DNA of 64,000 nt from positions 4,953 through 68,952 of IMG/VR virus record IMGVR_UViG_642973576_000001. One strand, written 5' to 3'. Each line of letters begins with the position of its first letter. The first letter of the stretch is position 1. Made by a program: the position numbers and the translations under genes. Below are positions 12,484 to 50,617 of the stretch, piece by piece. Below the pieces are notes generated by a model that saw only the letters and a list, made by a program, of their open reading frames with translations, had not been told where the DNA came from and ran no database searches. The stretch is from a virus. Its lineage: Duplodnaviria > Caudoviricetes.

Positions 12484-15400
12484 GTGACTTCGCCTGGTTC
12501 GCCGAACTATGATCTCGGTACTGCCCACGGTCGTATCAAACTGGACGTGGATGATCGTGGCACAAAAGCCGCAGATCGCGCACTAACTCAGTTCACTCGC
12601 TCAATCAAAAGCCTCGAACGACAGTTCGTGGCGTTCAACGCCTCTTTGAACAAAATTGAGCGTGAAGTTAAGAATCTGGGCCGGGACTTCAACCGGACCG
12701 AACGTGACGCCAAGAGCTTCGAACGGGCGACCGACGACGTAGACGCGGCACAGGTCAACGCCAGTCGCAGCACGTCGGGCTGGCGTGCGCAGTTGCGCAG
12801 CTTGGCGTCCACCATGGGAACCGCGCACGATCTGATCCGGCGCGCGGCGAAGTCTACGACCGATTTCGGTCACGCGATGAACCTCTCCGGGGGCGAAGTT
12901 CACAAGGGCCGACGCGAAGTTGACGTTCTCAATGTTCGTCTGCGTGATCTGATTCGGCGATTGCACCAAGCGTCAAATGCGGCTAACGATTTCGGCGGCG
13001 TAATCGCCAACGCATTTGCACTTTGGTCGCGCTGGGGTAACAACAACGACGGATTCAACGGGTTTGTCCGTTCGTTCCGAAACCTGCCGGTTGCTGCCGG
13101 AGCGGTTGGCCTTCTGAGTTCTCGCTTTCTCGGTCTGAACAAGGCCATGAAAGATGTGCCGCGATGGCAGAAGTCGATTCTTAGCCTTGTCGGGGCGTTT
13201 CAGGGCGCAGCGCTGGCGTCTAAACTCTTCGATCTGTCGCTGAACAAGCTTTTCAAGCGGGATCTCAATTTTCTCAGAAGGGGCGCTTCGTGGGTTTCTG
13301 AGTTTGCGTTCCACGTAACCCGTGCGATTGCCCCCAGCAACAAGCTCGGAGAGCAAATCCGTCGGTTGAATTCGGGATTCCGTGGTCTTGGGGGCGGCGC
13401 TGCCGGGGCAATCGCTGGCCTGGCCCTTTTCCGGCAAGGCTTGAAGGGTCTCTCTGATCGATTTGGGTTCATCACCAAAATTCGACCAGCCATTCTTCTG
13501 GCCATTGGTGGCGCAGCGTCGGTTGCTGCCGCTTCGGTCGAATTGCTCGGCAAGGCTTTGGTCTGGACCTCGAACATTCTGTCCGGAATGTGGAATGGCA
13601 TCAAGCAGCTCTCTGGCGGGTTGCTCGCCCTGCCAGGTTTGATCGGAACCGTCGTTACCGGAGTTGGTGTGTTGGCAACGGCATTCTCCGGTTTGAAGTC
13701 CATGTTCGAAGACGTTTTCAAGAACCTGGATGATCCTGAGAAATTCGCCGAAGCACTCGCTAAGGTGCCACCCCAATTCCGCGGTTTGGCGTTGACCCTC
13801 GTAGATGTTACGAAGATGCTGAAGGGTCTTCGCGAGGAAATCACGGGGACGTTTGCGCAGGGTCTCGAAAAAGACGTCAAAACGCTTGCCCAGCAATTCG
13901 CCGGTCCGCTTCGTCACGGCACGCTGGTGGTTTCGCAGGCGTTCGTGGACACGCGCTCCAAGCTCATGGACCTGCTCACTTCGCAGGATTCCGTGCAGGA
14001 CTTCGGACGCGCATTCACCTACACGTCGGGCACGATCCGCAACCTGAACAAGGCGATTGTTCCGCTCGGAAGCGGACTTCGCGATATCGCTATCGTCGGC
14101 ATGGAGTTCATCCGCGACCTTAGCGCCGGAGCCGAGAGTGTCACAAAGCGGTTCGCCGAGTGGGCGAAGGTAAACCGCGAAAACGGCAATCTCATGCGGT
14201 GGATGAAAGACGCCGTAGAGGGCGTCAAAGATCTTACACGCGGACTGGTGGATCTCACCAAGGCGCTGTGGACGATCCTCACCGCATTCGCAGATCGCAG
14301 CGGAGACAATGCGCTGGATCGATTTGCGAAATCGATGGAGAAGTTCAACGCTGCCGTCGAGAAGAGCGCGGCAACGGGATGGCTTCGCGAATTCGCCGAC
14401 GGCGTGCGCGCTCTCGGAACCGACAAGATTGAACGCCTGACCGATATTCTCAAGGACGTTTGGGAAACGCTCAAGGTCATTATCCCGGTCGTTCAGCAGG
14501 TTTCGTCGGCGTTCTCTGACGTATTTGTTCCGGCGTTCAAGTTGGCGCTGGAAATCGTGGAGCAGTTCTTCAATTTCCTCGATGGTCTGGGTCTGACCAC
14601 CTACATCGGATGGATTCTCGGGCTGGCAGCCGGATTCAAACTTTTGGCCGCAGTTATCGGGCCGCTGCGAAACCTGATTCAGATCATTTCTGGTGTTGGT
14701 CTCGCATTCGCCAGTTTCAAAAAGCTTGCCGGTGGCGCGGTTGACATTCTGTACTACTTCGGAGCAGCCGGTCGCAAGACTCACGGCGTCATGTCCAAAC
14801 TTGGCAGCGCAATTGCCGGTGTAGCTGGACCGTTGGGCATTTTGGTCGGTTCTTTGGCGTTCATGGCGTCGGCATTTGCCGCGCGTCGGCAGGATATCGC
14901 CAAATTCAACGATACGCTCGCAGAGGCAAAGCAGCAGGCGCAAGACTTCAAGGGCGCTCTTAACGAGGCGTTTCGTGAAGATCTTGGAATCACCGGAAAA
15001 ACCGTTCTCGACACCATCGCTGGTCGAACCGGTGAGGCCATCGCGAATATTAAGTCGCAGGCCGAACAGGTTCCGGGAGTTATCGAAAACATCCGCGACC
15101 TGTGGTTCGGCGGCGGTGGACAGAACGAAGCGTTCGGCGCTGGTCGCGGACCGTTCTCTTGGGCGCAGTCCAACGAATTCAACGCGATGCAAAAGGCGGC
15201 GCAAGACGCCGAACACGCAAAAGTCGCGTTCGACCGGCTCGGATTGAGCAACGAAGACCTTGCCGGAATCGTTGCCGGGTCTAAGCAGCGGTTTGACGAG
15301 TTCAATCAAAGTCTGCGAAACAGCGGCGAAGGCGGAAACGAAGCCGCAGCCGTTTTGCAGCAGATCCGCGAAGAATACGCGCAGACGCAGGCTGAATTCG

Positions 15401-18400
15401 AAAAGGCCGGAACGGGCAGCATTCAGCTCGTGCAGGGCATTCAGGCGATTGCCGATGCAGCCGGAGACTCACGAACCAAACTCGACGGTCTGAAGCTTGC
15501 GCTGCAAGGTCTGGGTCTGTTGCAGACCTCGCAGCTTGACGCGGCCTTCGCCTACGCCAAGACCATCCGCGAAATCGGCAACAGTGCGGCAACTCTGGTC
15601 GATTCGACGCAACCGCTCAACGACATTCTCAACGAACAGACCGGCCTCTACAACACGAACTCCGTCAACGCGGAAAATCTGCGCAACGCCATCGCAAGCC
15701 TTGCCAGCGATTTCCTGAATGCCGCTGCCAACGGCGAAAGCGTTCAGCAGAAGTGGCAGGAAATGCAACCGGCGCTCGAATCGCTGGCGACGGCATTCCA
15801 GATTCCCATCGAAAAGGTCCGAGAGCTGGCCGCTCTCGAAGGCGCGGTACCTGATGTTGTGTCGATTCTGGTCAACGTCAAGGGCGGCGACAAGATCGGC
15901 GAACAGCTTGCTGCGATTGTCGCCAAACTCGAAACGACCGCGCAGGGGCAGGAAATCACTGTTCCCATCGTTCCCGGCGTGGATCAGGAAAAGCTTCGCC
16001 AGGCGATCACCGAGAAATTCGGAAACGTCATTGGCAGCATGTCCGAAGACACCATCACCATCAAGCCCGGTGTCGATCCGGCGGCTTTGGCCGAACTCAA
16101 AGCAACGTTGTCCCAGAACGGAATCGCGCTTCCGGGCAGCGGACCCGCCAAGCCGGTTGAGCTGCCCGTGGCTCCGGCCAAGCCGGGGCCGAAGCCTGCT
16201 TACGAACCTCCCCCTGAAATCGCTCCGAGCGCTGAGGATCAGGCGAAGGTGGACGAGGCGAAAAACAAAATCGCCGAACTCGAAGCGCAGGTTACACAGC
16301 TCAATGAGCAAAAGGTTCAGGTTCAGGTTGATACCGGAACGCTGGACGAGATCAAGTCGCGAATTGAAGAGGTTCGCAACGTTGTCGCTGACGGCAAGTT
16401 GGAATTCACCATCATTGCCAAGGGTTACGACGAGACGAATTACGTCCTCAACACGGTAATCGAGACAATCGGTCGCCTGATCAGCGAAGCCGAAAAGATC
16501 GCACCGGCCTTCCAGAGGGCTTTTTCCACAACGCCAATTGACGGCTTTTCGTCGCGCATGCAGCAGCTCGTTTCGGAGATGCGCGGATACGGCCAAAAGC
16601 TCGTTTCCGAACTCGCCCAAGGCATGCTGGATAGCAAGGGCGCAATTGACGAGGCCGGAAATACCATCGCGCAGGCGGTGCAGGACTACCTCCAACCGGG
16701 GTCGCCCACGAAGAAGGGTCCGCTGTCCGGATCGGGGTGGACCTATACCTCGGGTGGTCGCCTTATCAAGGACTTCGCCTCCGGTATGGAGGGCGAGGCA
16801 GGTACCGCAGGCGGCGCAGCAGGCGCGGTCGCGAGCGCGACGGGTCAAGCCCTACAGGGGCCTTATGACTTCGGCAAATTTTTGGGCCGTTTGCAACAAC
16901 TGGTCGCTTTTGGTGAACATTTGGTGGACGTTATCGGGCGAGCCGCCGATACCGTTTTTAACGCGATCAAATTTATCTCCGATCCACAGGGAAAGGGCAC
17001 CTTTTTCGGCAAATCTTCGGCGTCAGCCTTCGGATTCCGTCGAGATCCGAATGTCACCGACGACGATCTTCGCCGAAAGCGTGAGGACGAGCTGCAAAAC
17101 CGACTGTCCAGTGCTGCCGCGCAAGGAACGCGCGAAGGCGCAGAGGCCGGTCTGTCGGATCTGCCCGGACTCGAAGCGCTTGAGGGAGTCGCCAACCCGA
17201 ACGTTGACGAAATCACCGCAGCGGTCATTGGCGAAGGTTTGAGGCAGGGCGCAACGCGCGAAGCGATCATCAAGTCGCTTCCGGCAGAAGTTGCCAAGTT
17301 CGGCAAGGAGTTTGAGGGCAATGCCGGAGAAACGTTCGATGAGATCGTTTCGTCGCTGACGAGTCCGCGCAGCCGTGGCGGGTATGGCAGCGGCGGCTAC
17401 GTCAGCGACGCTGCACTACTCGCCAACGTTCCCGTTGGCCGATACTCGCAACAGGGAAACGCCGATCTGACAAAAGGTCTCGCCGATTGCTCTTCGGCGG
17501 TCGAAGACCTCGTGAACATCATGGACGGTCGCGGAACTGGGGGCCGTTCGCTCAACACCGGAAACGCTGCGCAGTGGCTGCTTGAACGCGGATTCGTGCG
17601 CGGCGAGGGTGGTCCGGGCGATTTCCGTGTGGCCTTCAACGTGAGCCACATGCAGGCCACGCTTCCCGGTGGCACACCGTTTAACTGGGGCAGTGACGCT
17701 GCCGCGCGCCGTCGCGGAATCGGCGGTACCGGCGCTGACGATCCGTCGCTGACGAGCCGGTGGTATCGACCGGTGACCTCGGCGCACGGATCGCAGGGCA
17801 ACGGTCTTGGCCCGGATCTGTCCGAACTCACTCCCGACGAACTTGATCTTCTGAACAGAACGCAGGGGCTTTCGCTCAAGACCGAAGAGGATATGCTCTT
17901 CGAACTGCGCCGGAACAACGCTGCGCTGGACGAAGCAATTACGGTCGGTCAAGACCCGAATTCCACTGACGCACAAGTGATTCAGTCGCTGGCTGAAATT
18001 CAGCGATCCATCGATTCGTCGGCGGCAATCGATACCCCGGCGATGCGCCAGCAGACGCAATCGCTGGAATCGATCAAGTCGGCCATCATGGGCGACCGGG
18101 GAATCACCGAAGGCGTGAACCCGATTGACGCAGCGTCGTCCATCGCGCAGGGTGCAACGTCGATTGCGAAAGACATTTTCGGCGTTATCAATTCTACGCT
18201 TGACGCTATCGGGGGAGCAAAGGCCATCGCCGACACGCTCGTTCGCGGCGTCGAAAACACCGAAGACATCTACAACATGGTGGATGAATTCCAGAAATTC
18301 ATCGATCTTGCTGCGCGCGTGGCCGGTGCGGTGTCGTCGGTGACCGGCACTATCGGTGGCATCGTCAGTGCCGCAGGCGGTGCAGACCCATCCGGTGGCG

Positions 18401-31337: not shown

Positions 31338-31700
31338 ATGGAAAACGGCACAGTTCGCGTTTCGACACAGCTACGCAACCCGCTCGTCGGCATGCAGCAA
31401 GACGAACTTGCGGCGCGTTTTTCGGCGAAGCTGCTCGCCCGTCTGATCGTGCTTGAGCGTGAAAACATCGGCTTGCGAGTGCGATTGGAACTCGCAACTG
31501 GTGAGCCGTGGGATAGTCAAGACTTTCTGGACATGAGCGCAGATCAGATCCACGAAGAGGTCGCGGAGTCGCTTGTGCGCGGCCTCGGGATTTCCAAGAT
31601 GGACGCACTCAAGCGAGTCCGCGAAAACTACGAGTGCGCGAACCCGGCGCTCGCCAAATCTTCTGACGAAGATATCCTGCCCCTGCCACCGCAGGGCTGA
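31338..31700 (+). CDS. hypothetical protein
   Basis: RBS AGGACGGAC; last gene of the late block. Confidence 0.7.
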   Translation: MENGTVRVSTQLRNPLVGMQQDELAARFSAKLLARLIVLERENIGLRVRLELATGEPWDSQDFLDMSADQIHEEVAESLVRGLGISKMDALKRVRENYECANPALAKSSDEDILPLPPQG

Positions 31701-31702
31701 TC

Positions 31703-32595
31703 GCGCATAATGCGCCCGGGATTCGCGCGAAACGCTCGGGTTTCAGGGCTGCGCATAATGCGCGCGATCTCAGGGCTGAGCGTTAAAACCTTAATGTAGA
31801 TGCGCGCGTCTTGTCGGATCTGCGCGCGGAAGAATCGCGCGCGTGCGCGAATTCCACGCGCGCGCATTGTGCGCGCGTCTTTCGCGCGCGTCTTCCACGC
31901 GCGATCGATGCTACGTGCGTGCGCCCATAGACGCACGCGCGTAGCATGGATCGCGCGCGGCTCCACGCTTTCGCGCGGGCGTACATGGACGCACGCGCGC
32001 TGCAATGATCGCGCGCGGCATCCACGTTTCGCGCGGGCGCACATAGACGCACGCACGTAGCGTTGATCGCGCGCGTCTCCATGCTACGTGCGTGCGTGAT
32101 GTACGCACGCACGTAGCGACGAATCGCGCATGCGCGTTGCGCGATGCGTTGCTACGTGCGTGCGTGATGTACGCACGCACGTAGCGACGAATCGCGCGCA
32201 AGGCATCATGCGCACGCGCGTCCAATTCCGCGCACGCGGAAATGGACGCGCGCGAGCGCATCCGTGGGCATGCAGGTGCGCAACACACACCAGCGATACG
32301 GAATGCGCGTAATGCGCATAGCGCGTCATGCGCGAATCTGGGCGCGCGCGTGATCGCGAATCTGGGCGCGTATGCGCAGACGAGGATCGCCTGTATGCGC
32401 ATAGCGCCAGCGCGCGAATCTGGGCGCGTATGCGCAGAATATGCTCGCCCGCATGATGCGGCGGCGCGCGCAGAGTTCTCGCGGGCGTATGGATGTCCGC
32501 GCGCGCGATAATAACCCGCGCGCGATAAAGCGGCAAACTTGGAAAAAGCCTGGTCGGAAGCGGTTTTTGGCGATTTCTCGCATGCACCCGCATGA
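31703..32595. repeat. non-coding region of dense CGCG/GCGC and alternating purine-pyrimidine direct and inverted repeats
   Basis: GCGCATAATGCGC x2; GCTACGTGCGTGCGT-gatgt-ACGCACGCACGTAGC x2 (32083, 32151); GCGAATCTGGGCGCG x3; only low-complexity RARAR ORFs. Confidence 0.9.
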
Positions 32596-33211: not shown

Positions 33212-33255
33212 GAACCGACAAAAGCTCGGTTCCTGGCTAGAAACGGACAAAAATC

Positions 33256-33918: not shown

Positions 33919-33923
33919 GGGTA

Positions 33924-33967
33924 GGGTGACTGGCAGACATCCGGGTTCGAGTCCCGGACACCCACGA
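33924..33967 (+). ncRNA. tRNA-like element 2
   Basis: GGGTG-ACTGGCAGACA-TCCGGG-TTCGAGT-CCCGGA-CACCC-ACGA. Confidence 0.8.
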
Positions 33968-34008
33968 GAATCAGCACAAGACTGATTCCAGACAGAACGG
34001 ACAAAATC

Positions 34009-34368: not shown

Positions 34369-34377
34369 ATTCGGGTA

Positions 34378-34421
34378 GGGTGACTGGCAGACATCCGGGT
34401 TCAAGTCCCGGACACCCACGA
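34378..34421 (+). ncRNA. tRNA-like element 3
   Basis: GGGTG-ACTGGCAGACA-TCCGGG-TTCAAGT-CCCGGA-CACCC-ACGA. Confidence 0.8.
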
Positions 34422-34464
34422 CGACAGACAGAAGATCTGTCGCAAAGTAGAAACGGACACAACC

Positions 34465-35126: not shown

Positions 35127-35134
35127 ATCAGATC

Positions 35135-35179
35135 GGGCAGATGGTCGTAGGCAGGGTTCGACTCCCTGCCTGCCCACGA
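35135..35179 (+). ncRNA. tRNA-like element 4
   Basis: GGGCA-GATGGTCGTA-GGCAGGG-TTCGACT-CCCTGCC-TGCCC-ACGA. Confidence 0.8.
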
Positions 35180-35220
35180 GAATCGTCAAAAGAACGATTC
35201 CAGACAGAACGGACGGAAAA

Positions 35221-35886: not shown

Positions 35887-35893
35887 TCAGATC

Positions 35894-35938
35894 GGGCAGA
35901 TGGTCGAAGGTGGGGTTCGACTCCCCACCTGCCCACGA
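35894..35938 (+). ncRNA. tRNA-like element 5
   Basis: GGGCA-GATGGTCGAA-GGTGGGG-TTCGACT-CCCCACC-TGCCC-ACGA; compensatory changes relative to element 4. Confidence 0.8.
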
Positions 35939-35979
35939 GAATCGTCAAAAGAACGATTCCAGATAGAATGGACGGAAAA

Positions 35980-36674: not shown

Positions 36675-36681
36675 TCGGGTG

Positions 36682-36725
36682 GCGCGACTGGCAGACATCC
36701 GGGTTCAAGTCCCGGACGCGCACGA
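36682..36725 (+). ncRNA. tRNA-like element 6
   Basis: GCGCG-ACTGGCAGACA-TCCGGG-TTCAAGT-CCCGGA-CGCGC-ACGA; outer stem covaries with elements 2/3. Confidence 0.8.
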
Positions 36726-36770
36726 CGAACCGTCAAAAGAACGGTTCGCACGAAAGAACGGAAACGGACA

Positions 36771-37157: not shown

Positions 37158-37209
37158 ATGTCACCGCGCCAGGGTAGGCTCTCACTACCGGCAAGCCGTT
37201 AACACGGCA

Positions 37210-37253
37210 CCGTGGATGGTCGAAATCCGGGTTCGACTCCCGGACACGGGCGA
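37210..37253 (+). ncRNA. tRNA-like element 7
   Basis: CCGTG-GATGGTCGAAA-TCCGGG-TTCGACT-CCCGGA-CACGG-GCGA. Confidence 0.78.
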
Positions 37254-37294
37254 CGGTTCTCGCCGAGAACCGCATGAAGTAAGGAAACGGACAC

Positions 37295-37982: not shown

Positions 37983-38419
37983 TTATGGACGTGATCAAAG
38001 AGGCATTGCTCCACTACCGGTCGATGTGGGCGATGTGGCTGGAACTCAAGCACACGACCGAAGCCGAACGCGAACTCGCCCGCGTCAAGATTGCGCTGAT
38101 TGACGCCGAACTGACGCGGCGCAACGAGTCGGCGGTCGCCGAACCGAAAAAGCGGATGACACTGCGAAAGCTCGGCGAACTGCACCCGGCGTTCATGTCG
38201 CCGGAGGTTACTCAGAGCGCCGAACGTCTTCGGGAGGCGAACGCCGACCCGCGCAACTGGCACTGCGCAAACTGCGGTGAGCAAATCGTCCACATTGCGG
38301 AGAATCCAAACCTGGACGGTTCGCCGAAGCATTGGGCTCATCTGGACTCTGGCGAGCTGCGATGCGAGGTCGCGACGAATCACCCGGCGTTCGGTAAGAA
38401 CGCCGAACCGATCTACTGA
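37979..38419 (+). CDS. hypothetical protein (CxxC...H...C)
   Basis: RBS GAAAGGA; overlap with the previous stop. Confidence 0.7.
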   Translation: MIMDVIKEALLHYRSMWAMWLELKHTTEAERELARVKIALIDAELTRRNESAVAEPKKRMTLRKLGELHPAFMSPEVTQSAERLREANADPRNWHCANCGEQIVHIAENPNLDGSPKHWAHLDSGELRCEVATNHPAFGKNAEPIY

Positions 38420-38425
38420 TCGGCA

Positions 38426-38460
38426 GCCCTTGGCGGGTTCGACTCCCGTCAGCGGCGCGA
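38426..38460 (+). ncRNA. tRNA-like element 8 (degenerate, lacks D-like linker)
   Basis: TGGCGGG-TTCGACT-CCCGTCA then GCGGC-GCGA and a downstream hairpin. Confidence 0.55.
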
Positions 38461-38566
38461 GGGTTCTCTCAGAGAACTCTTATTTGGGCTAGCCGAATCT
38501 CTGTGCTAGTCTAAATCCGGGAGCAAACGAGAACGGTTCTCGTCTCGAATGAAAGGAAACGGACAA

Positions 38567-39778
38567 ATGAGCTACCATGACGATCTGTACCTGAACGCCG
38601 GTAACATTCTCGTGGGCGGCGTGCAGGGTCTCAAGGACCGCATCACCGGCGAACCGCTCGAAGGCGGCTGGCGTCGGCCCGCGTGGTGGTACAACCCGCG
38701 TCTGGAAGACATCCACAACCCGACGCACTACCCGAACTACCTGCCGATTTCGCTGGTCAAGGAGAAGCTGTTCGGGTGGACGGCGCTGGAATCGGCGAAG
38801 CTCGTCGCGCACGTCGAAATCGACGGACGTATGGTCGAAATCGACTGCGGGAACTTCAAGGCCATCGTTCGCGGTGATCGCGTCTGGGAAGACGTTCCCG
38901 CCGATTCCGACGGGAATCCCATCGGAAACATCGGCAATCCGGAATCGGTCCTTTCCATCATGAGCAAGGACTACGAGGCGTTGCAGCCGCAAGAGTCCTT
39001 CATTCAGACAACCGTGGACCTGTTGCAGGGTTCCGATAACGTCGGAATCACCGGAGCCGGTCTGCTCAAGTGGGGGCGCGTCTGCTACATGGAAGTGTCC
39101 ATCCCGCAGACGATGCACAATGATCGCGCCGGATTCGACTATCGTCCGAATTTGCTCATCTACACGAGCTTTGACGGCTCGCTCAAGTACACCATTGCCC
39201 GCACCATCACGGCGACGGTCTGCGACAACACGTTGGCGATTGCCGCGTCGGAGGCCAAGCGCGCGGGTACGGCTTTTCAGGTGGCTCACACGCGGCTCGC
39301 TCGCGAGAAAATGTCGAAAGCGCGTGAAGTTCTGGGAATTCTTGAGCAGGAAACCAACGAAATGGACGAACTGCTCAACACGTGGGCGGCGACGCCGGTC
39401 AATCCCAAGCAGTTCGAGGCGTGGCTGGACGAGGTTCTGCCGGTTCCGGAGGTCAAGGTGATCGACGGCAAGGCGAAGACCAATTCGCAGACCATCGTCC
39501 TGAACAAGCGCGAGGCCATCGGAGATCTGTACTACTCCGACGAACGCGCGGCAACGTGGGTCGGCACCAAGCTTGGTGTTCGCCAGGCGTGGAACACCGC
39601 ACATCACCACAAGTTCCGCGCCGGGAACGCCAAACAGTTCGGCGGAAACAAGATGCAGGCTCGTGTCGAGGCCAACATGATGCGGGCGATGCGTCTGGAC
39701 AAAAACGGCGACTCCGAGATCGCACGCTCCGACGCGTGGGCCATGGAGAAGCTGGATCTGGTCCTGTCCAACTCCTAG
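38567..39778 (+). CDS. DUF932-family (phage/plasmid LGT) protein
   Basis: TAGxL..G..C...NLL.YTSFDGSL.....T....VCDNTL-type motifs (GAGLLKWGR, TSFDGS, VCDNTL). Confidence 0.8.
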   Translation: MSYHDDLYLNAGNILVGGVQGLKDRITGEPLEGGWRRPAWWYNPRLEDIHNPTHYPNYLPISLVKEKLFGWTALESAKLVAHVEIDGRMVEIDCGNFKAIVRGDRVWEDVPADSDGNPIGNIGNPESVLSIMSKDYEALQPQESFIQTTVDLLQGSDNVGITGAGLLKWGRVCYMEVSIPQTMHNDRAGFDYRPNLLIYTSFDGSLKYTIARTITATVCDNTLAIAASEAKRAGTAFQVAHTRLAREKMSKAREVLGILEQETNEMDELLNTWAATPVNPKQFEAWLDEVLPVPEVKVIDGKAKTNSQTIVLNKREAIGDLYYSDERAATWVGTKLGVRQAWNTAHHHKFRAGNAKQFGGNKMQARVEANMMRAMRLDKNGDSEIARSDAWAMEKLDLVLSNS

Positions 39779-39784
39779 CACGGA

Positions 39785-39829
39785 TGCGTGACTGGCAGAC
39801 ACCGGGGTTCGAGTCCCCGGCACGCACGA
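39785..39829 (+). ncRNA. tRNA-like element 9
   Basis: TGCGTG-ACTGGCAGACA-CCGGGG-TTCGAGT-CCCCGG-CACGCA-CGA. Confidence 0.8.
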
Positions 39830-39878
39830 CGATTCCCCCGGAATCGCACAGAAAAATCAACAGAAACGGACAAGAGAA

Positions 39879-41029: not shown

Positions 41030-41341
41030 ATGGCCGGTCACATCGGACTCACCCCCGTCCCAGATGACGGAGAACTGTCGGAATTCATTCAGAAAATGAT
41101 TGACTCCGACCAAGAAACATGTGACCGGCACATGGGAGACCTCGCCGAAACCGTCGAATTCACGGTTCGCGATAGCGAGCCGGAAACGTTCGCCTACGCT
41201 CGAATGGTCAACTTTTTGACCGACAGTATGGAAGCTGGCGAACTCGTCCACCTGTGCGCCGCAGCGCTGTGGCGTCTTTACGGCGAAAGCCGGAACCAAG
41301 GAAATGTAGTTCCAATTCAACCAGAAACGGACAAAGGATGA
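41030..41341 (+). CDS. hypothetical protein
   Basis: RBS AAGGA; coupled to the next gene. Confidence 0.65.
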   Translation: MAGHIGLTPVPDDGELSEFIQKMIDSDQETCDRHMGDLAETVEFTVRDSEPETFAYARMVNFLTDSMEAGELVHLCAAALWRLYGESRNQGNVVPIQPETDKG

Positions 41342-41931: not shown

Positions 41932-43989
41932 GTGAGCGAAGTCAAACCGCCCTGGCGGGTCGGACTGTGGACGGCGAAGAGTCGCGTATGGGTGGTGTTA
42001 CCGTTCAACCGGCGTCACATCGACACGCTCAAAGAGCGTGTCCCCGGAGCGCGATGGTCTCCGGAGGAAAAGTTCTGGCATTTCCCTTTGGATCTGGACG
42101 TGTGTCGCGACATTCGTTCTGTGGCATCGTCTTTCGGGCACGGTCTGTACATCGAGCCGGAGCTGGCGAAGTGGGCGCGCGCCGAGAAAACGCGCTATTC
42201 GCATGTCCTTGCGCCAGAAGCGAATACCGAGGACTGGCAGAAGTTGTTGCCGCACTTGCAATCTGAGCGTCCGCAGCTCTACGGAGCCATGCGCGACATC
42301 GCACGCAAGATGGACGGCACGCAGGGAACGCCGTGGCAGATTCTCGGCGCGGCGTTCATGGCCGCGCAGAAGCGCACTCTGCTTGCCGACCAGCCGGGTT
42401 TGGGCAAAACGATCCAGACGCTTTCAGCGGTCGCCGAACTCGACATTCGAGGTCCAATCCTCGTGGTAGCTCCGCGTTCGGCTGTGGCCGTGACATGGCC
42501 GGAGGAAATCGCCCAATGGCTGGGCGAAGACGAGAGGATCTTCGTGATTAACGCGTCGATCAAACCAGCCGAGCGCCGCAAGCTCGTTCAACAGGCGCGC
42601 GACTGGGGAGCACGGGGTCACCGCGCGTGGGTTCTGTGCGGGCCGAACTACCTCCGAATCCACGCAGATACCGACCCGAACACGGGAGATTATCTGCGAG
42701 ATCCGAAGGGGAACAAGATCATTCGGGCCGTGAACGAATGCGTGCCCGATCTGTTCGGCGTGAAGTGGTCTGCGGTGATCGTGGACGAGTCCCACCAGAC
42801 TCTCGCCGGGGCAACCGGCAACAAAAAGAAACAGTCCTCGCAGCGTCTCGGACTGGGCGCAATCGACACCGCGCCGGATGCACTGCGAATTGCTATCTCC
42901 GGCACGCCATTTCGCGGCAAGACCGAAAACCTCTGGGGGACTCTGAACTGGCTCTACCCGGAGAAATACACGTCCTACTGGAATTGGATCAAGCGCCACT
43001 ACGGAATTCAGGACTCCGGCTCATCGTTCGGCAGCGGCGTCGTCAAGGGCGACAAGATTCTTGACGAGAAGCGGTTTTTCAGCGAACTCAAGCCGGTTAT
43101 GGTGCGCCGCACCAAGCTTGAAGTTCGGGACTCGCTGCCGCCGAAGATGTACGGTGGGACGCATCTGGTCCCCGGCGACGAGACGACACCGGTTGCCGTG
43201 TGGCTGCCGATGTCTCCCAAGCAGGAAAAGCAGTACCGGGAGATCGAACGCGAAGCGCTGATCAACATCGGCAGCGAAGACGAAATCACCGTCAACGGTG
43301 TGCTCGCCGAAATGACGCGTTGCAAGCAGATCGCGAACTCCTGCTTGCAGGCCGATGGTTTCAACGCGATGGGCGATGTGAAGGTCAGGCCGATCTTCCC
43401 GTCCAACAAGGCCGACTGGATCTACGATTTCCTGTCGGAACGAATCAGCAATGGCACCAAAACCATTGTGGCATCACAGTTCACCGGATTCCTCAACGTA
43501 TTGAGTGAGGAGCTGAAAAAGAAAGGGGTTGGGCACTACCTCTACACCGGAGCGACCCAAGAGCCGGAACGCAAGCGAATCCGCAAGGAATTTCAGTCGG
43601 AATCCGGCGAAATGGTGGTGTTGCTCAACACCAAATCGGGTGGCGTCTCGCTCACCCTGGACCTGGCCGACGATGTGATTATCGTTGACCAGACCTGGAT
43701 TCCGGACGATCAGGAGCAGGTCGAAGACCGCGCACACCGTGTGAGCCGGAATCACAACGTGACGATCTGGAACCTCGCATCGCTTGGGACGATTGACGAG
43801 GATATCGCCGTTCTAAATAACGAGCGCGGCGAGGCCATTTCGTCTATCCTGGAAAAGCAGCGTGGGGTTACCTACGCAAAGAAGCTCTACGCCAAGGCGA
43901 AAGAGCGCAGAGAAGAAGAACTGGAAAAGACCGGAATGCCCAAGTGGCACAAGGCACAACAACAGAAAGAAACGGACAAGGCATCATGA
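41932..43989 (+). CDS. SNF2-family (SF2) DNA helicase
   Basis: LLADQPGLGKT, IVDESH, SGTP, QVEDRAHR motifs; RBS GAAAGGAG. Confidence 0.95.
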   Translation: MSEVKPPWRVGLWTAKSRVWVVLPFNRRHIDTLKERVPGARWSPEEKFWHFPLDLDVCRDIRSVASSFGHGLYIEPELAKWARAEKTRYSHVLAPEANTEDWQKLLPHLQSERPQLYGAMRDIARKMDGTQGTPWQILGAAFMAAQKRTLLADQPGLGKTIQTLSAVAELDIRGPILVVAPRSAVAVTWPEEIAQWLGEDERIFVINASIKPAERRKLVQQARDWGARGHRAWVLCGPNYLRIHADTDPNTGDYLRDPKGNKIIRAVNECVPDLFGVKWSAVIVDESHQTLAGATGNKKKQSSQRLGLGAIDTAPDALRIAISGTPFRGKTENLWGTLNWLYPEKYTSYWNWIKRHYGIQDSGSSFGSGVVKGDKILDEKRFFSELKPVMVRRTKLEVRDSLPPKMYGGTHLVPGDETTPVAVWLPMSPKQEKQYREIEREALINIGSEDEITVNGVLAEMTRCKQIANSCLQADGFNAMGDVKVRPIFPSNKADWIYDFLSERISNGTKTIVASQFTGFLNVLSEELKKKGVGHYLYTGATQEPERKRIRKEFQSESGEMVVLLNTKSGGVSLTLDLADDVIIVDQTWIPDDQEQVEDRAHRVSRNHNVTIWNLASLGTIDEDIAVLNNERGEAISSILEKQRGVTYAKKLYAKAKERREEELEKTGMPKWHKAQQQKETDKAS

Positions 43990-44255: not shown

Positions 44256-44623
44256 GTAACACTGTCGGAGTCGTCGGCATTCTCGCTGCGTTCGTTCTGC
44301 TTTTTCTGTGGGTTTCGTCGGCGTGGAGAACTCACAACGCGATAGAGCGGAACCGACGTGAAACCGCCGAACTCAGAAAAGAAGCAGAATCGATCAGAAA
44401 TCTGGCCGAATCTGACCGGAAACGCATCCGGTCGCTTGAGACCCACATGTTACGGTTCACGGAGCCGGAGGCTATCGCCGATGACATGGAACGCACCGCC
44501 GACCTCATTGAGGCCCGCATGGCGGGTCGGCAGAGCATGCCGAGACCGGGTGCCGCGCCGAACGCTCGAATCTCCAAACTGAAGAACCGACAGGGCAAAT
44601 CAGGTTGGGACAAGAGCCGCTAG
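44252..44623 (+). CDS. single-TM membrane protein
   Basis: N-terminal TM then coiled-coil. Confidence 0.7.
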   Translation: MSNTVGVVGILAAFVLLFLWVSSAWRTHNAIERNRRETAELRKEAESIRNLAESDRKRIRSLETHMLRFTEPEAIADDMERTADLIEARMAGRQSMPRPGAAPNARISKLKNRQGKSGWDKSR

Positions 44624-44676: not shown

Positions 44677-44705
44677 TAGACAAGTCGCCGCAAAGCGACT
44701 AAGTT
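44677..44705 (+). promoter_or_regulatory. SigA-like promoter
   Basis: TAGACA-N17-TAAGTT in an intergenic gap. Confidence 0.6.
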
Positions 44706-44769: not shown

Positions 44770-45315
44770 ATGACGGACACCATCGAAGCGACCGAAGAGA
44801 CCACCGTGGACGCCGACGGCAACGAGACCGGCGACAAGGCGCGCGATTTCACGCGGTTCCGCGAGAACCACAAGGAGCTGGCCGACTTCATCAACTCGCA
44901 CCCCGAATTCGTCGCGTCGGGTCTCGCCGCGCTGGAACCGGGACAGATCAAGGCCGTGCTCGCACTGCGCGCGGACTTCAACAAGCTTCCCGAGCAGGTC
45001 GCCAAGCGCGAAGAGCGCAAGCGCGAGATCGAGGCCGAGAAGGCCAAGTTCGCCGGTCTGTCGCCCGAGCAGATCAAGGCGATGAAAGCCGCCGACCGCG
45101 CCGAGAAGCAGGCGCAGAAGATGCGCGAGAAGGCCGAAGAGGCCATGCGCCGCGCGGAGGAGCTGAAGGCCGCTGCCAGCGGTTCCGCTGCCGACCTCGC
45201 CGCTGCCGTCGAAGCCAAGACCAACGGCAGTGCGCCGGAGGCCGAGGCAGAGCCGGAGGCCGTCGAGGAGGTCGCCGACGAGAAGCCGCGTCGGCTGGGT
45301 CGTCGCCGGTCCTGA
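44770..45315 (+). CDS. charged coiled-coil protein, likely highly expressed
   Basis: Extreme GC3 bias; Glu/Lys/Ala-rich; basic C-terminal tail. Confidence 0.85.
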   Translation: MTDTIEATEETTVDADGNETGDKARDFTRFRENHKELADFINSHPEFVASGLAALEPGQIKAVLALRADFNKLPEQVAKREERKREIEAEKAKFAGLSPEQIKAMKAADRAEKQAQKMREKAEEAMRRAEELKAAASGSAADLAAAVEAKTNGSAPEAEAEPEAVEEVADEKPRRLGRRRS

Positions 45316-45322
45316 TCCCGGC

Positions 45323-45420
45323 GTCGGAGCGTCCGGGTAGGATTGACTGGCATCTGTGCCTACCCGGCGTTCTGACCGTCGCAGCGTATTCCGTCCGTTT
45401 CCGCTGCGGCGCTCAGGGCG
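45323..45420 (+). ncRNA. putative structured sRNA whose loop is antisense to the GAAACGGAC start-associated motif
   Basis: Stem CGTCGCAGCG/CGCTGCGGCG with loop TATTCCGTCCGTTTC (reverse complement GAAACGGACGGAATA); upstream stem CCGGGTAGG/CCTACCCGG. Confidence 0.5.
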
Positions 45421-45492
45421 CAAGCTCTAAAATGCAGTAACCAGAACACAAATACCTAACGACAGTAATCACACCGGACAGATTGGACCCTC

Positions 45493-45621
45493 ATGGGCAA
45501 TCAACAGAATCCCGACGGGATTTACATTCCTCCCGGCGTTAATCGCCGGTTCCCCCTGAACCGACCGCAGGACCAGAAGCCCGACGACGCTCGTCCGGAT
45601 GAGTCCAAGAGGTCGAAGTGA
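45493..45621 (+). CDS. 42-aa hypothetical protein (putative)
   Basis: GGA upstream; GTGA overlap with the next gene. Confidence 0.4.
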   Translation: MGNQQNPDGIYIPPGVNRRFPLNRPQDQKPDDARPDESKRSK

Positions 45622-50287: not shown

Positions 50288-50323
50288 AAATAAATTCATT
50301 TGCATTTTCAAGAAACGGACAAG

Positions 50324-50617
50324 ATGAAAATCGAAGACCAAGCGCGACCGGGCGTGGATTCCAGCGAAGTCGAAGAGGTTTTGCTTCGAGATGGGTACTG
50401 GTATCCGGTGCGTGACAACTCATTTCGCATTTACTCCCCCGTCGAATTGACGGGACGGACGATCACGGCACGAAACAACGGAGCCTATCTACGCTTTCGA
50501 AACGCCGAGGATAACCGGTGGATCGAAGCCCCTCTTGCCTCACTGGTCGCGGTAAACTACCGAGATACGCCGTCGTGCGAGGAAGTCTCCGAAACGGACG
50601 GAGCGAAGGGGAAATGA
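50324..50617 (+). CDS. hypothetical protein
   Basis: Start follows AGAAACGGAC. Confidence 0.7.
   Translation: MKIEDQARPGVDSSEVEEVLLRDGYWYPVRDNSFRIYSPVELTGRTITARNNGAYLRFRNAEDNRWIEAPLASLVAVNYRDTPSCEEVSETDGAKGK

Follow-up and report, generated by a model that had tools for sequence, protein, structure and literature searches.

The c4 antisense RNA of phages P1 and P7 is a processed hairpin RNA whose loops pair at ribosome-binding regions and block translation. The start-associated sequences (SAS) of Cluster K mycobacteriophages form a short asymmetric motif that occurs in 11-19 copies in the non-structural arm, a few nucleotides before mostly ATG starts (Pope et al., 2011, PMC3203893). According to the passages of that paper that deal with it, the motif overlaps the ribosome site and is conserved beyond the pairing with 16S rRNA, and its partner is left open as "either RNA or protein" (PMC3203893). 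The same passages mention no hairpin at the reversed copy, the word being used there for the extended (ESAS) repeats, inverted repeats upstream of a subset of the SAS, and name a reverse site only for four K1 phages and not for TM4 or Pixie, so that, as far as this text goes, an antisense copy of the SAS does not appear to be universal (PMC3203893). Papers from 2024 and 2025 still call the role of the SAS unknown, in those of their sections that touch on it. Here we describe a 64,000-nt stretch of phage DNA (the window; bases 4953-68952 of the 68,952-bp record IMGVR_UViG_642973576_000001, of the Konstantinevirus type by taxonomy lines) in which a hairpin downstream of a gene 64 homologue (hairpin 2) presents in its loop the antisense of a tag found before start codons of the same phage. 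Sequence comparison shows the RNA hairpin to be real and conserved, with selection acting on the sequence of its loop, the mirror image of the phage's own start-codon tag. We lean, without great confidence, towards reading it as a 3' untranslated region (3'UTR) or intercistronic RNA that pairs with this phage-private tag at the ribosome site.

Between positions 44600 and 46000 the window is 97.6-98.7% identical to seven named phages of Mycobacterium smegmatis (Damien, Beckerton, Oaker, Megatron06, Thumb, Phreeze and Cborch11), with Damien, at 98.7%, as the near-identical, annotated twin; Predator is ~74% identical over the same stretch, and Barnyard, DrLupo and Patience-type phages match it in the coding part only. 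We take these phages to be those known as Cluster H. The name is used in the available part of the Patience paper.

No other 9-mer is as frequent in the window as the tag, GAAACGGAC. Over the complete 68,952-bp genome it occurs 12 times on the forward strand and once on the reverse, compared with no occurrence on either strand for a control motif read backwards, and the sole reverse copy is the loop of hairpin 2. For ten of the 12 exact copies an ATG follows after 1-14 nt (after no more than 8 nt for nine of the ten; in order 7, 6, 1, 2, 2, 7, 5, 8, 3 and 14 nt). These ten precede genes between 33.2 and 50.6 kb; the other two, at 1362 and 7329, are not at starts. The sequence-only reading of this region had put the number of genes with the motif at about 13, which agrees with ten leaders carrying the full 9-mer, two more with CAGAACGGAC (starts 34009 and 35221) and one variant that keeps a G-U pair with the loop (35967-35977). 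The extents it gave for the match to the reverse complement of the loop were likewise right, namely 9 nt at the 12 forward GAAACGGAC sites, 11 nt at 35208-35218 and 12 nt at 50591-50602. In Damien, 14 of the 62 annotated right-arm starts have AACGGA within 24 nt (1.15 expected), as have 9 of 61 annotated starts in Predator (0.65 expected), and the gene type that starts at 41338 in the window carries the tag also in Predator, Barnyard and the uncultured contig L143. With its copy number (12), its proximity to ATG codons (10 of 12) and 12 forward copies against one reverse copy that is not at a gene start, the tag is similar to the SAS of Cluster K, four descriptive features of which it fits. 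It does not fit the defining sequence, since the Cluster K motif GGGATAGGAGCCC (with up to two departures) is unrelated to GAAACGGAC, and the clusters differ as well. Small inverted repeats lie 10-20 nt upstream in several of the tagged leaders (e.g. GAGAATCAG...CTGATTC); they were noticed in an informal look and are far shorter than the 17-bp arms of ESAS.

Apart from one extra C, the tag resembles the usual AGAAAGGA site of mycobacteria; the loop in turn resembles what we take to be the 3' tail of 16S rRNA with one matching extra G (UCC-G-UUUC versus UCCUUUC). Predicted duplexes between tags and loop range from -14 to -22 kcal/mol, and those between tags and the presumed 16S tail from -6 to -10 kcal/mol, the latter only with the extra C of the tag bulged. 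The two additional bases would thus make tag and loop a private code that spares ordinary messages. That a partnership of loop and tag explains the odd ribosome site is plausible, on the assumption that we have the 16S tail right.

Hairpin 2 consists of 9 + 10 = 19 pairs in two tiers, with one G-U among the ten upper-stem pairs. Both sequence and fold bear out the 10-bp stem (45377-45386 with 45402-45411) and 15-nt loop that had been proposed from the letters alone, and the second stem placed upstream, CCGGGTAGG/CCTACCCGG, is confirmed as hairpin 1. Folded alone, hairpin 2 reaches -33.5 kcal/mol (z -4.3; none of 200 shuffles was equally stable), and the z-scores across three lineages are -4.3, -6.7 and -4.4. 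Its apical loop is unpaired in the minimum-energy as well as the centroid fold. Alternative pairing of its 5' side had also been predicted, and is found: 45368-45376 pair with 45323-45331 in the minimum-energy fold of the 131-nt region, and with the 45413-45421 side when hairpin 2 is folded alone. No equivalent of the 45323-45331 pairing was found in Predator or Barnyard, for which reason it is probably lineage-specific and we reject it as a switch. A permissive Rfam 15 search of 30000-52000 gave no family match at 45.3-45.4 kb, and ARAGORN called no tRNA in the window. The hairpin begins 52 nt past the gene 64 stop, on the coding strand and with a conserved seed, as would fit the position of a 3'UTR-derived small RNA (sRNA).

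Relatives were collected by homology of the neighbouring proteins. The gp64 protein as single query found Predator as the sole match in IMG/VR, and an alignment of five gp64 proteins found Barnyard, DrLupo and an 11.9-kb contig (L010) in which no hairpin 2 is present; with the same alignment, a metagenome search yielded one 7.4-kb contig (L013). By way of the neighbouring exonuclease gene 80 loci were obtained, 14 of them with a gp64 homologue in the fetched stretch, and eight previously unknown loci among these 14 were inspected; L165 and L182 were set aside for their weak gp64 matches. The lineages compared are this phage, Predator, Barnyard, DrLupo and the uncultured contigs L141 and L143, the last two of which were found via exonuclease and gp64 homology and not via the loop. 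A pattern scan of IMG/VR for the conserved letters of the hairpin returned at least 117 stretches, and the 14 with the most stable folds contained no octamer-looped two-tier hairpin.

The stem changes on both sides at 16 of its 19 pairs in the six-lineage alignment, with 93.9% of the cells paired, values that none of 500 shuffles reached on four of the five measures. When the partner is shifted by 1-3 columns, pairing falls to 34-48%, and the first four lineages alone already show both-side changes at 10 of the 19 pairs. The octamer TCCGTTTC of the loop (core UCCGUUUC) is identical in all six lineages although all six upper stems differ; L141 and L143 share both the two-tier hairpin and the loop core. 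Three further contigs, L144, L148 and L152, keep the two-tier hairpin and have different loops. At the other end of the scale, an alignment of eight near-identical phages has 48 variable columns among 1,402, none of them within the 177-nt spacer after gene 64 (P ~0.0015), which indicates that the spacer is more strongly constrained than the flanking genes. As a structured element of the coding strand, hairpin 2 is thus conserved, and these alignments argue that its loop is under selection independently of its stem. Every relative with the motif also has the loop, so that the refutation named in the sequence-only reading did not occur; where the motif is missing, the loop is missing too. Two of the other-looped relatives (L148, 2211-2270; L144, 2886-2949) have pyrimidine-rich loops, one being UUAUUUCCUUUCUUGG, close to the presumed 16S 3' tail, and the other CCCUCUCCCCAUCCCCUU. 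In the phage of L148, a 9-nt complement to its own, different loop occurs in the leader of the 41338-type gene (AAAGGAAAT, overlapping the ATG); over all leaders the enrichment is not significant.

Complements to the loop of at least 7 nt are found in 16 of the 62 annotated Damien leaders, while shuffled loops average 2.2; 42 of 20,000 shuffled loops and 45 of 20,000 random genomic oligomers did equally well or better. The longest forward-strand complement measures 12 nt for the Barnyard loop (120 of 5,000 shuffles) and 14 nt for the DrLupo loop (7 of 5,000). Both lie at the orthologous leader of a DUF932 gene, just before the likely true ATG, and this gene is the orthologue of the tagged window gene at 38567-39778 (38% identity, E 4e-93). 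The base following GAAACGGA is the same in loop complement and leader, namely A in Barnyard, T in DrLupo and C in this phage and Predator, and cognate loop and leader match over 12 nt in Barnyard and 14 nt in DrLupo, compared with 10 and 10 nt for the crossed combinations. The covariation of loop and leader that the sequence-only reading had suggested looking for in related phages can therefore be seen between Barnyard and DrLupo and does not extend to this phage and Predator. Contig L143 has a sole long complement to its loop (11 nt, GAGAAACGGAC); it belongs to the orthologue of the window gene at 41338, whose ATG follows after 2 nt. The annotated starts of the DUF932 gene lie upstream of the ATG that follows the tag, in Barnyard gp56 (L006, 15406-15466) as well as DrLupo gp57 (L007, 15797-15905); the stretch from annotated start to post-tag ATG is 60 nt long in one and 62 nt in the other, and codon-like conservation begins only at that ATG. 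This difference in length makes the post-tag ATG the probable true start. A ranking of all annotated leaders by duplex energy was also tried and dropped in favour of exact complements, as it was noisy, chiefly in Barnyard and DrLupo, whose CCCC-rich loops pair with any GGGG or GGAGG site, and as it missed the DUF932 leader owing to the upstream annotated starts.

Outgroups that are without this loop are also without the tag. No TCCGTTTC was found in 42.5 kb of Patience, whose leaders are of the common AGAAAGGA type, and contig L013 combines ordinary ribosome sites with a single U-tract hairpin. In G003 and G004, which have hairpin 2 with another loop, GAAACGGA is not in excess over the backwards control. 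For the loop of G002 tested against the leaders of the same genome, the count was 1 of 30, which 3,853 of 5,000 shuffles equalled. G005 was considered as a counter-example for its three forward GAAACGGA copies without an antisense loop, and dropped because none of the three is at a gene start.

Genes near the hairpins are encoded on the plus strand throughout. The gene 64 protein belongs to PHROG 12020 (unknown function; E 3.7e-95), a comparison with Pfam gave a sub-threshold hit only, with no known fold or family, and homologues are present in Predator, Barnyard, DrLupo and Patience. Its putative SigA-like promoter, whose layout is kept in Predator, was read from the letters by eye; it must be regarded as putative because a consensus scan did not report TAGACA-17-TAAGTT. 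In Predator, Barnyard and DrLupo, too, the gene 64 homologue is followed by a spacer with two hairpins. Hairpin 1 occupies the position of the gene's terminator hairpin in outgroups, where one hairpin followed by a U-run is found in Patience (after gp79) and in contig L013; L150 resembles Patience in having just one hairpin. DrLupo gp73 (L005, 1655-1915) is an annotated open reading frame (ORF) that runs over both hairpins, has no counterpart in Barnyard or the Konstantine-type phages and is unlikely to be a real gene. That the spacer is coding was rejected more generally, the loop lengths of Barnyard and DrLupo differing by 4 nt and no ORF being shared. Behind the hairpins lies a small gene (45493-45621, MGNQQ...), of which Barnyard has an unannotated, GTG-started counterpart near L003 1978.

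We propose the following mechanism. Transcription from the putative gene 64 promoter would run into hairpin 2, which it probably reaches because hairpin 1 stands in place of the old terminator without a U-run. The resulting RNA may be stable, its 19-20-pair stem either protecting a 3' end or being suited to RNase III cutting; the layout of 19 pairs and a 1x1 internal loop is kept in eight lineages. The loop core UCCGUUUC would then pair in trans with the GAAACGGA(C) tag of ~13 early and replication-region genes, and the 9-12 contiguous loop-tag pairs would cover the 30S binding site. Tagged leaders are not obviously self-folded over the tag, and pairing would therefore block rather than open them. 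Since the pairing would cover the 30S site, class-wide repression of translation is the most likely effect, and the tagged early genes would presumably be turned down as the RNA accumulates.

Several points weigh against this proposal. No U-tract follows hairpin 1 or hairpin 2. sRNAs derived from a 3'UTR would be expected to end in the intrinsic terminator of their parent; here neither a U-run nor a terminator-like site was found between 44500 and 45700 (+), and hairpin 2 differs from an intrinsic terminator in its 15-nt loop and in its tail, CUCAGGGCG, which lies inside the lower stem and is followed by AAGCUCUAAAA. The consensus scan of the same plus-strand stretch reported neither promoter nor terminator, which is weak evidence either way since the plausible gene 64 promoter escapes it too. 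A search of the literature found no transcriptome of a Cluster H phage, and the available part of the Patience paper mentions no such RNA. In Barnyard and DrLupo no more than 2-3 leaders bear the tag, and the 41338-type gene of DrLupo is without it, so that a class switch is not the conserved core of the system. The idea of a whole gene class regulated at once, as originally suggested, fits only this phage and Predator (~9-14 tagged leaders) and not Barnyard, DrLupo and an uncultured relative (1-3). The permutation values are moderate (~0.002), because pyrimidine-rich shuffles often match purine-rich leaders, and the covariation of loop and leader amounts to one or two positions in few lineages, with leaders partly picked as best matches. 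Loops and leaders show no cognate preference when this phage is compared with Predator; the leaders of this phage pair on average better with the Predator loop (-16.1 kcal/mol) than with their own (-14.9 kcal/mol), and the tag consensus continues with CAA where the complement of the phage's own loop has CGG. Finally, with crude gene calls the loops of G003 and G004 match 4 of 62 and 6 of 52 of their own leaders, values reached by 999 and 1,113 of 5,000 shuffles, respectively.

Instead of pairing with the tag, the hairpin could be a structural RNA, either an RNase III-type site or a stabiliser of the 3' end of the gene 64 message, with a loop that is kept by protein binding and matches the tag as a by-product of its likeness to ribosome sites. 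The two-tier stem of 19-20 pairs with its 1x1 internal loop persists in the differently looped L144, L148 and L152 and must therefore have a role of its own, and both the location of hairpin 1 at the outgroup terminator position and the absence of fine covariation between this phage and Predator suit such a structural role. We nevertheless consider it unlikely, as it does not account for an octamer that is the exact complement of the commonest 9-mer, for best complements located directly before orthologous starts in Barnyard, DrLupo and L143, or for the A/T difference common to loop and leader; moreover, no candidate protein was found, gp64 being without known fold or family. Action in cis on a leader of the same long transcript, or mimicry of the 16S 3' tail to hold a factor, could be suspected from the likeness of the loop to the presumed 16S tail and from AACGGAC or CCGGAC in the promoter-proximal leaders of genes 64 and 65. 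The ribosome sites of these two genes are poor partners of the loop (-2.3 kcal/mol for the gene 64 leader and -9.4 kcal/mol for gene 65), Barnyard has ACCGGAC where the gene 64 leader carries AACGGAC at its 5' end, and the closest tagged start is more than 1.3 kb away, all of which makes this alternative decidedly improbable.

At the level of DNA, the reversed motif might be bound by a protein that recognises the tags as well, or it might belong to an origin or a cruciform. A double-stranded site can be read in either orientation, and the authors of the Cluster K study favoured DNA-binding proteins for the ESAS repeats in the part of their discussion concerned (PMC3203893). Tags on one strand only and 1-8 nt from an ATG are, however, a signature of translation, the 16 of 19 compensatory stem pairs favour a folded single strand, and conservation is limited to the loop rather than to a duplex-sized site; we give this view very little credence. 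Mere chance, with an ordinary hairpin happening to hold the 9-mer, is the explanation that we believe least. One reverse 9-mer per 64 kb would be expected ~0.25 times (an estimate from base composition), which counts in its favour, but six lineages whose stems differ keep the octamer unchanged, the spacer has no variable columns, and both the loop permutations and the co-occurrence across relatives speak against coincidence.

If hairpin 2 does pair with the tags, it would combine traits of several known regulators. The c4 RNA uses two loop-target pairs to control a single operon, located downstream in the transcript to which c4 itself belongs, whereas here a single loop would face a dozen dispersed tagged leaders. 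DicF, CpxQ and SroC of enterobacteria likewise come from protein-coding transcripts and direct a short conserved seed to ribosome sites; they depend on Hfq and usually end in a U-tract, whereas hairpin 2 has no U-tract and its seed lies in a hairpin loop. To our knowledge, mycobacteria lack Hfq. Pyrimidine-rich apical loops that pair without a chaperone with purine-rich ribosome sites are shared with 6C/B11 of mycobacteria and with RsaE and RNAIII of staphylococci, the loops of which fit the ordinary Shine-Dalgarno sequence of the host and not, as here, a phage-private variant with an inserted base. Class-wide shut-off of early messages at their ribosome-binding sites is also what the RegA repressor and RegB nuclease of T4 achieve, both of them proteins, while the effector proposed here is an RNA.

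Cluster K itself provides a possible parallel. In Anaya (L022, 39850-39900, between gp96 and gp97 on the coding strand), a two-tier GC hairpin, whose fold is not significant alone (z -1.4), carries the single reversed SAS GGCCTCCTATCCC, with one mismatch, in its 10-nt loop. It is tempting to speculate, and we do so tentatively, that the hairpin is the missing partner of the SAS: actinobacteriophages of unrelated clusters (H, and K1 with Anaya) would each pair a set of tags with one antisense-loop hairpin, forming an orthogonal code of Shine-Dalgarno and anti-Shine-Dalgarno by a matched one-base insertion, so that one RNA would switch a dozen genes without touching messages of the host or other phages. 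Searches combining start-associated sequences with mycobacteriophage, phage and hairpin returned only the 2011 study (PMC3203893) on a link to a hairpin and, in the text passages covered, no paper that proposes an antisense partner, and a literature text search for the motif letters found only unrelated primer lists.

Table 1. Elements of the gene 64 region, tagged leaders and recurrent intergenic elements; positions are those of the window unless a contig is named.
Feature	Position	Strand	Remarks
Gene 64 homologue	44770..45315	+	ORF; 181 aa, charged, function unknown; gp64 in Damien
Putative SigA-like promoter of gene 64	44677..44705	+	TAGACA, 17 nt, TAAGTT; read from sequence
Hairpin 1	45333..45367	+	CCGGGTAGG 45333-45341 with CCTACCCGG 45359-45367; 17-nt loop; no U-tract
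Hairpin 2	45367..45421	+	Lower stem 45367-45375/45413-45421, 1x1 internal loop, upper stem 45377-45386/45402-45411
Apical loop TATTCCGTCCGTTTC	45387..45401	+	15 nt; holds octamer TCCGTTTC at 45394-45401
Tag GAAACGGAC	33240..33248	+	7 nt before ATG 33256
Tag variant AACGGAC (cagAACGGAC)	33996..34002	+	6 nt before ATG 34009
Tag GAAACGGAC	34450..34458	+	6 nt before ATG 34465
Tag AACGGACGGAA	35208..35218	+	11-nt loop complement; 2 nt before ATG 35221; predicted duplex -20.1 kcal/mol
Tag variant AATGGACGGAA	35967..35977	+	One change from the 35208 site, G-U with loop possible; 2 nt before ATG 35980
Tag GAAACGGAC	36761..36769	+	1 nt before ATG 36771
Tag GAAACGGAC	37284..37292	+	2 nt before ATG 37295
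Tag GAAACGGAC	38556..38564	+	2 nt before ATG 38567, DUF932 gene (38567-39778; Pfam DUF932)
Tag GAAACGGAC	39863..39871	+	7 nt before ATG 39879
Tag GAAACGGAC	41324..41332	+	5 nt before ATG 41338; 188-aa protein, MTEHKSE start
Tag GAAACGGAC	43969..43977	+	8 nt before ATG 43986
Tag GAAACGGAC	50312..50320	+	3 nt before ATG 50324
GAAACGGACGGA	50591..50602	+	12-nt loop complement; 11 nt before ATG 50614; AAGGGG ribosome site between; predicted duplex -21.7 kcal/mol
tRNA-like elements	33920-33968, 34374-34422, 35131-35179, 35890-35938, 36678-36726, 37206-37254, 38412-38460, 39782-39830		
TTGGGCTAGCC sites	Damien L020, gaps at starts 7765, 9823, 12671, 30275; Barnyard L006 ~15385-15415		

Other recurrent elements were seen in the window and its relatives. 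Eight intergenic elements of ~45 nt resemble the acceptor and T-arm half of a tRNA, with an invariant GGTTCRANTCC T-loop, a covarying T-stem, an ACGA end and a copy-specific acceptor-like stem of 5-6 pairs (GGGTG/CACCC, GGGCAG/CTGCCC, GCGCG/CGCGC and others). Seven of the eight are followed by a small inverted repeat, the start tag and the ATG, the exception being 38412-38460. Predator has eight of them as well, none was found at intergenic sites of Barnyard, DrLupo or Patience, and neither ARAGORN nor Rfam called them; they may be sites of RNase P/Z-type cuts that separate early messages, or belong to a mobile gene cassette as its repeat. In hairpin 1, the 5' arm and loop (45340-45357, GGGTAGGATTGACTGGCA) have GGGTAGG-TGACTGGCA in common with the 5' part of these elements, a likeness that is not conserved in Predator, Barnyard or DrLupo, and the 8-mer GACTGGCA has 11 copies in the window where ~1 is expected from its length.

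Between lysis and early genes extends a long non-coding stretch (window ~31400-32500; Barnyard L006, 11243-11460; DrLupo L007, 11608-11850), which in Barnyard and DrLupo holds about ten tandem copies, ~22 bp apart, of GCGATTCC(C/A)CGCG. Its counterpart in the window is GC-rich with alternating CGTG/ACGT and gave spurious matches to microRNA models. The stretch may be a replication origin or a protein-binding array. The palindromic TTGGGCTAGCC, which recurs intergenically ~17 nt before TAG-rich hexamers, may represent a second, phage-specific promoter class.

With a conserved antisense hairpin, the start-associated sequences gain a concrete candidate partner and a testable mechanism. The case sits in cultured phages of M. 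smegmatis mc2 155, a harmless laboratory host, where phage engineering is routine, and nature has already supplied variants in Barnyard and DrLupo, in which loop and leader covary, in Predator, which has another loop flank, and in Patience, which has neither loop nor tag. If confirmed, the pairing of hairpin 2 with the tags would constitute a class-wide, RNA-based switch of translation in phages and a natural private ribosome-site code.

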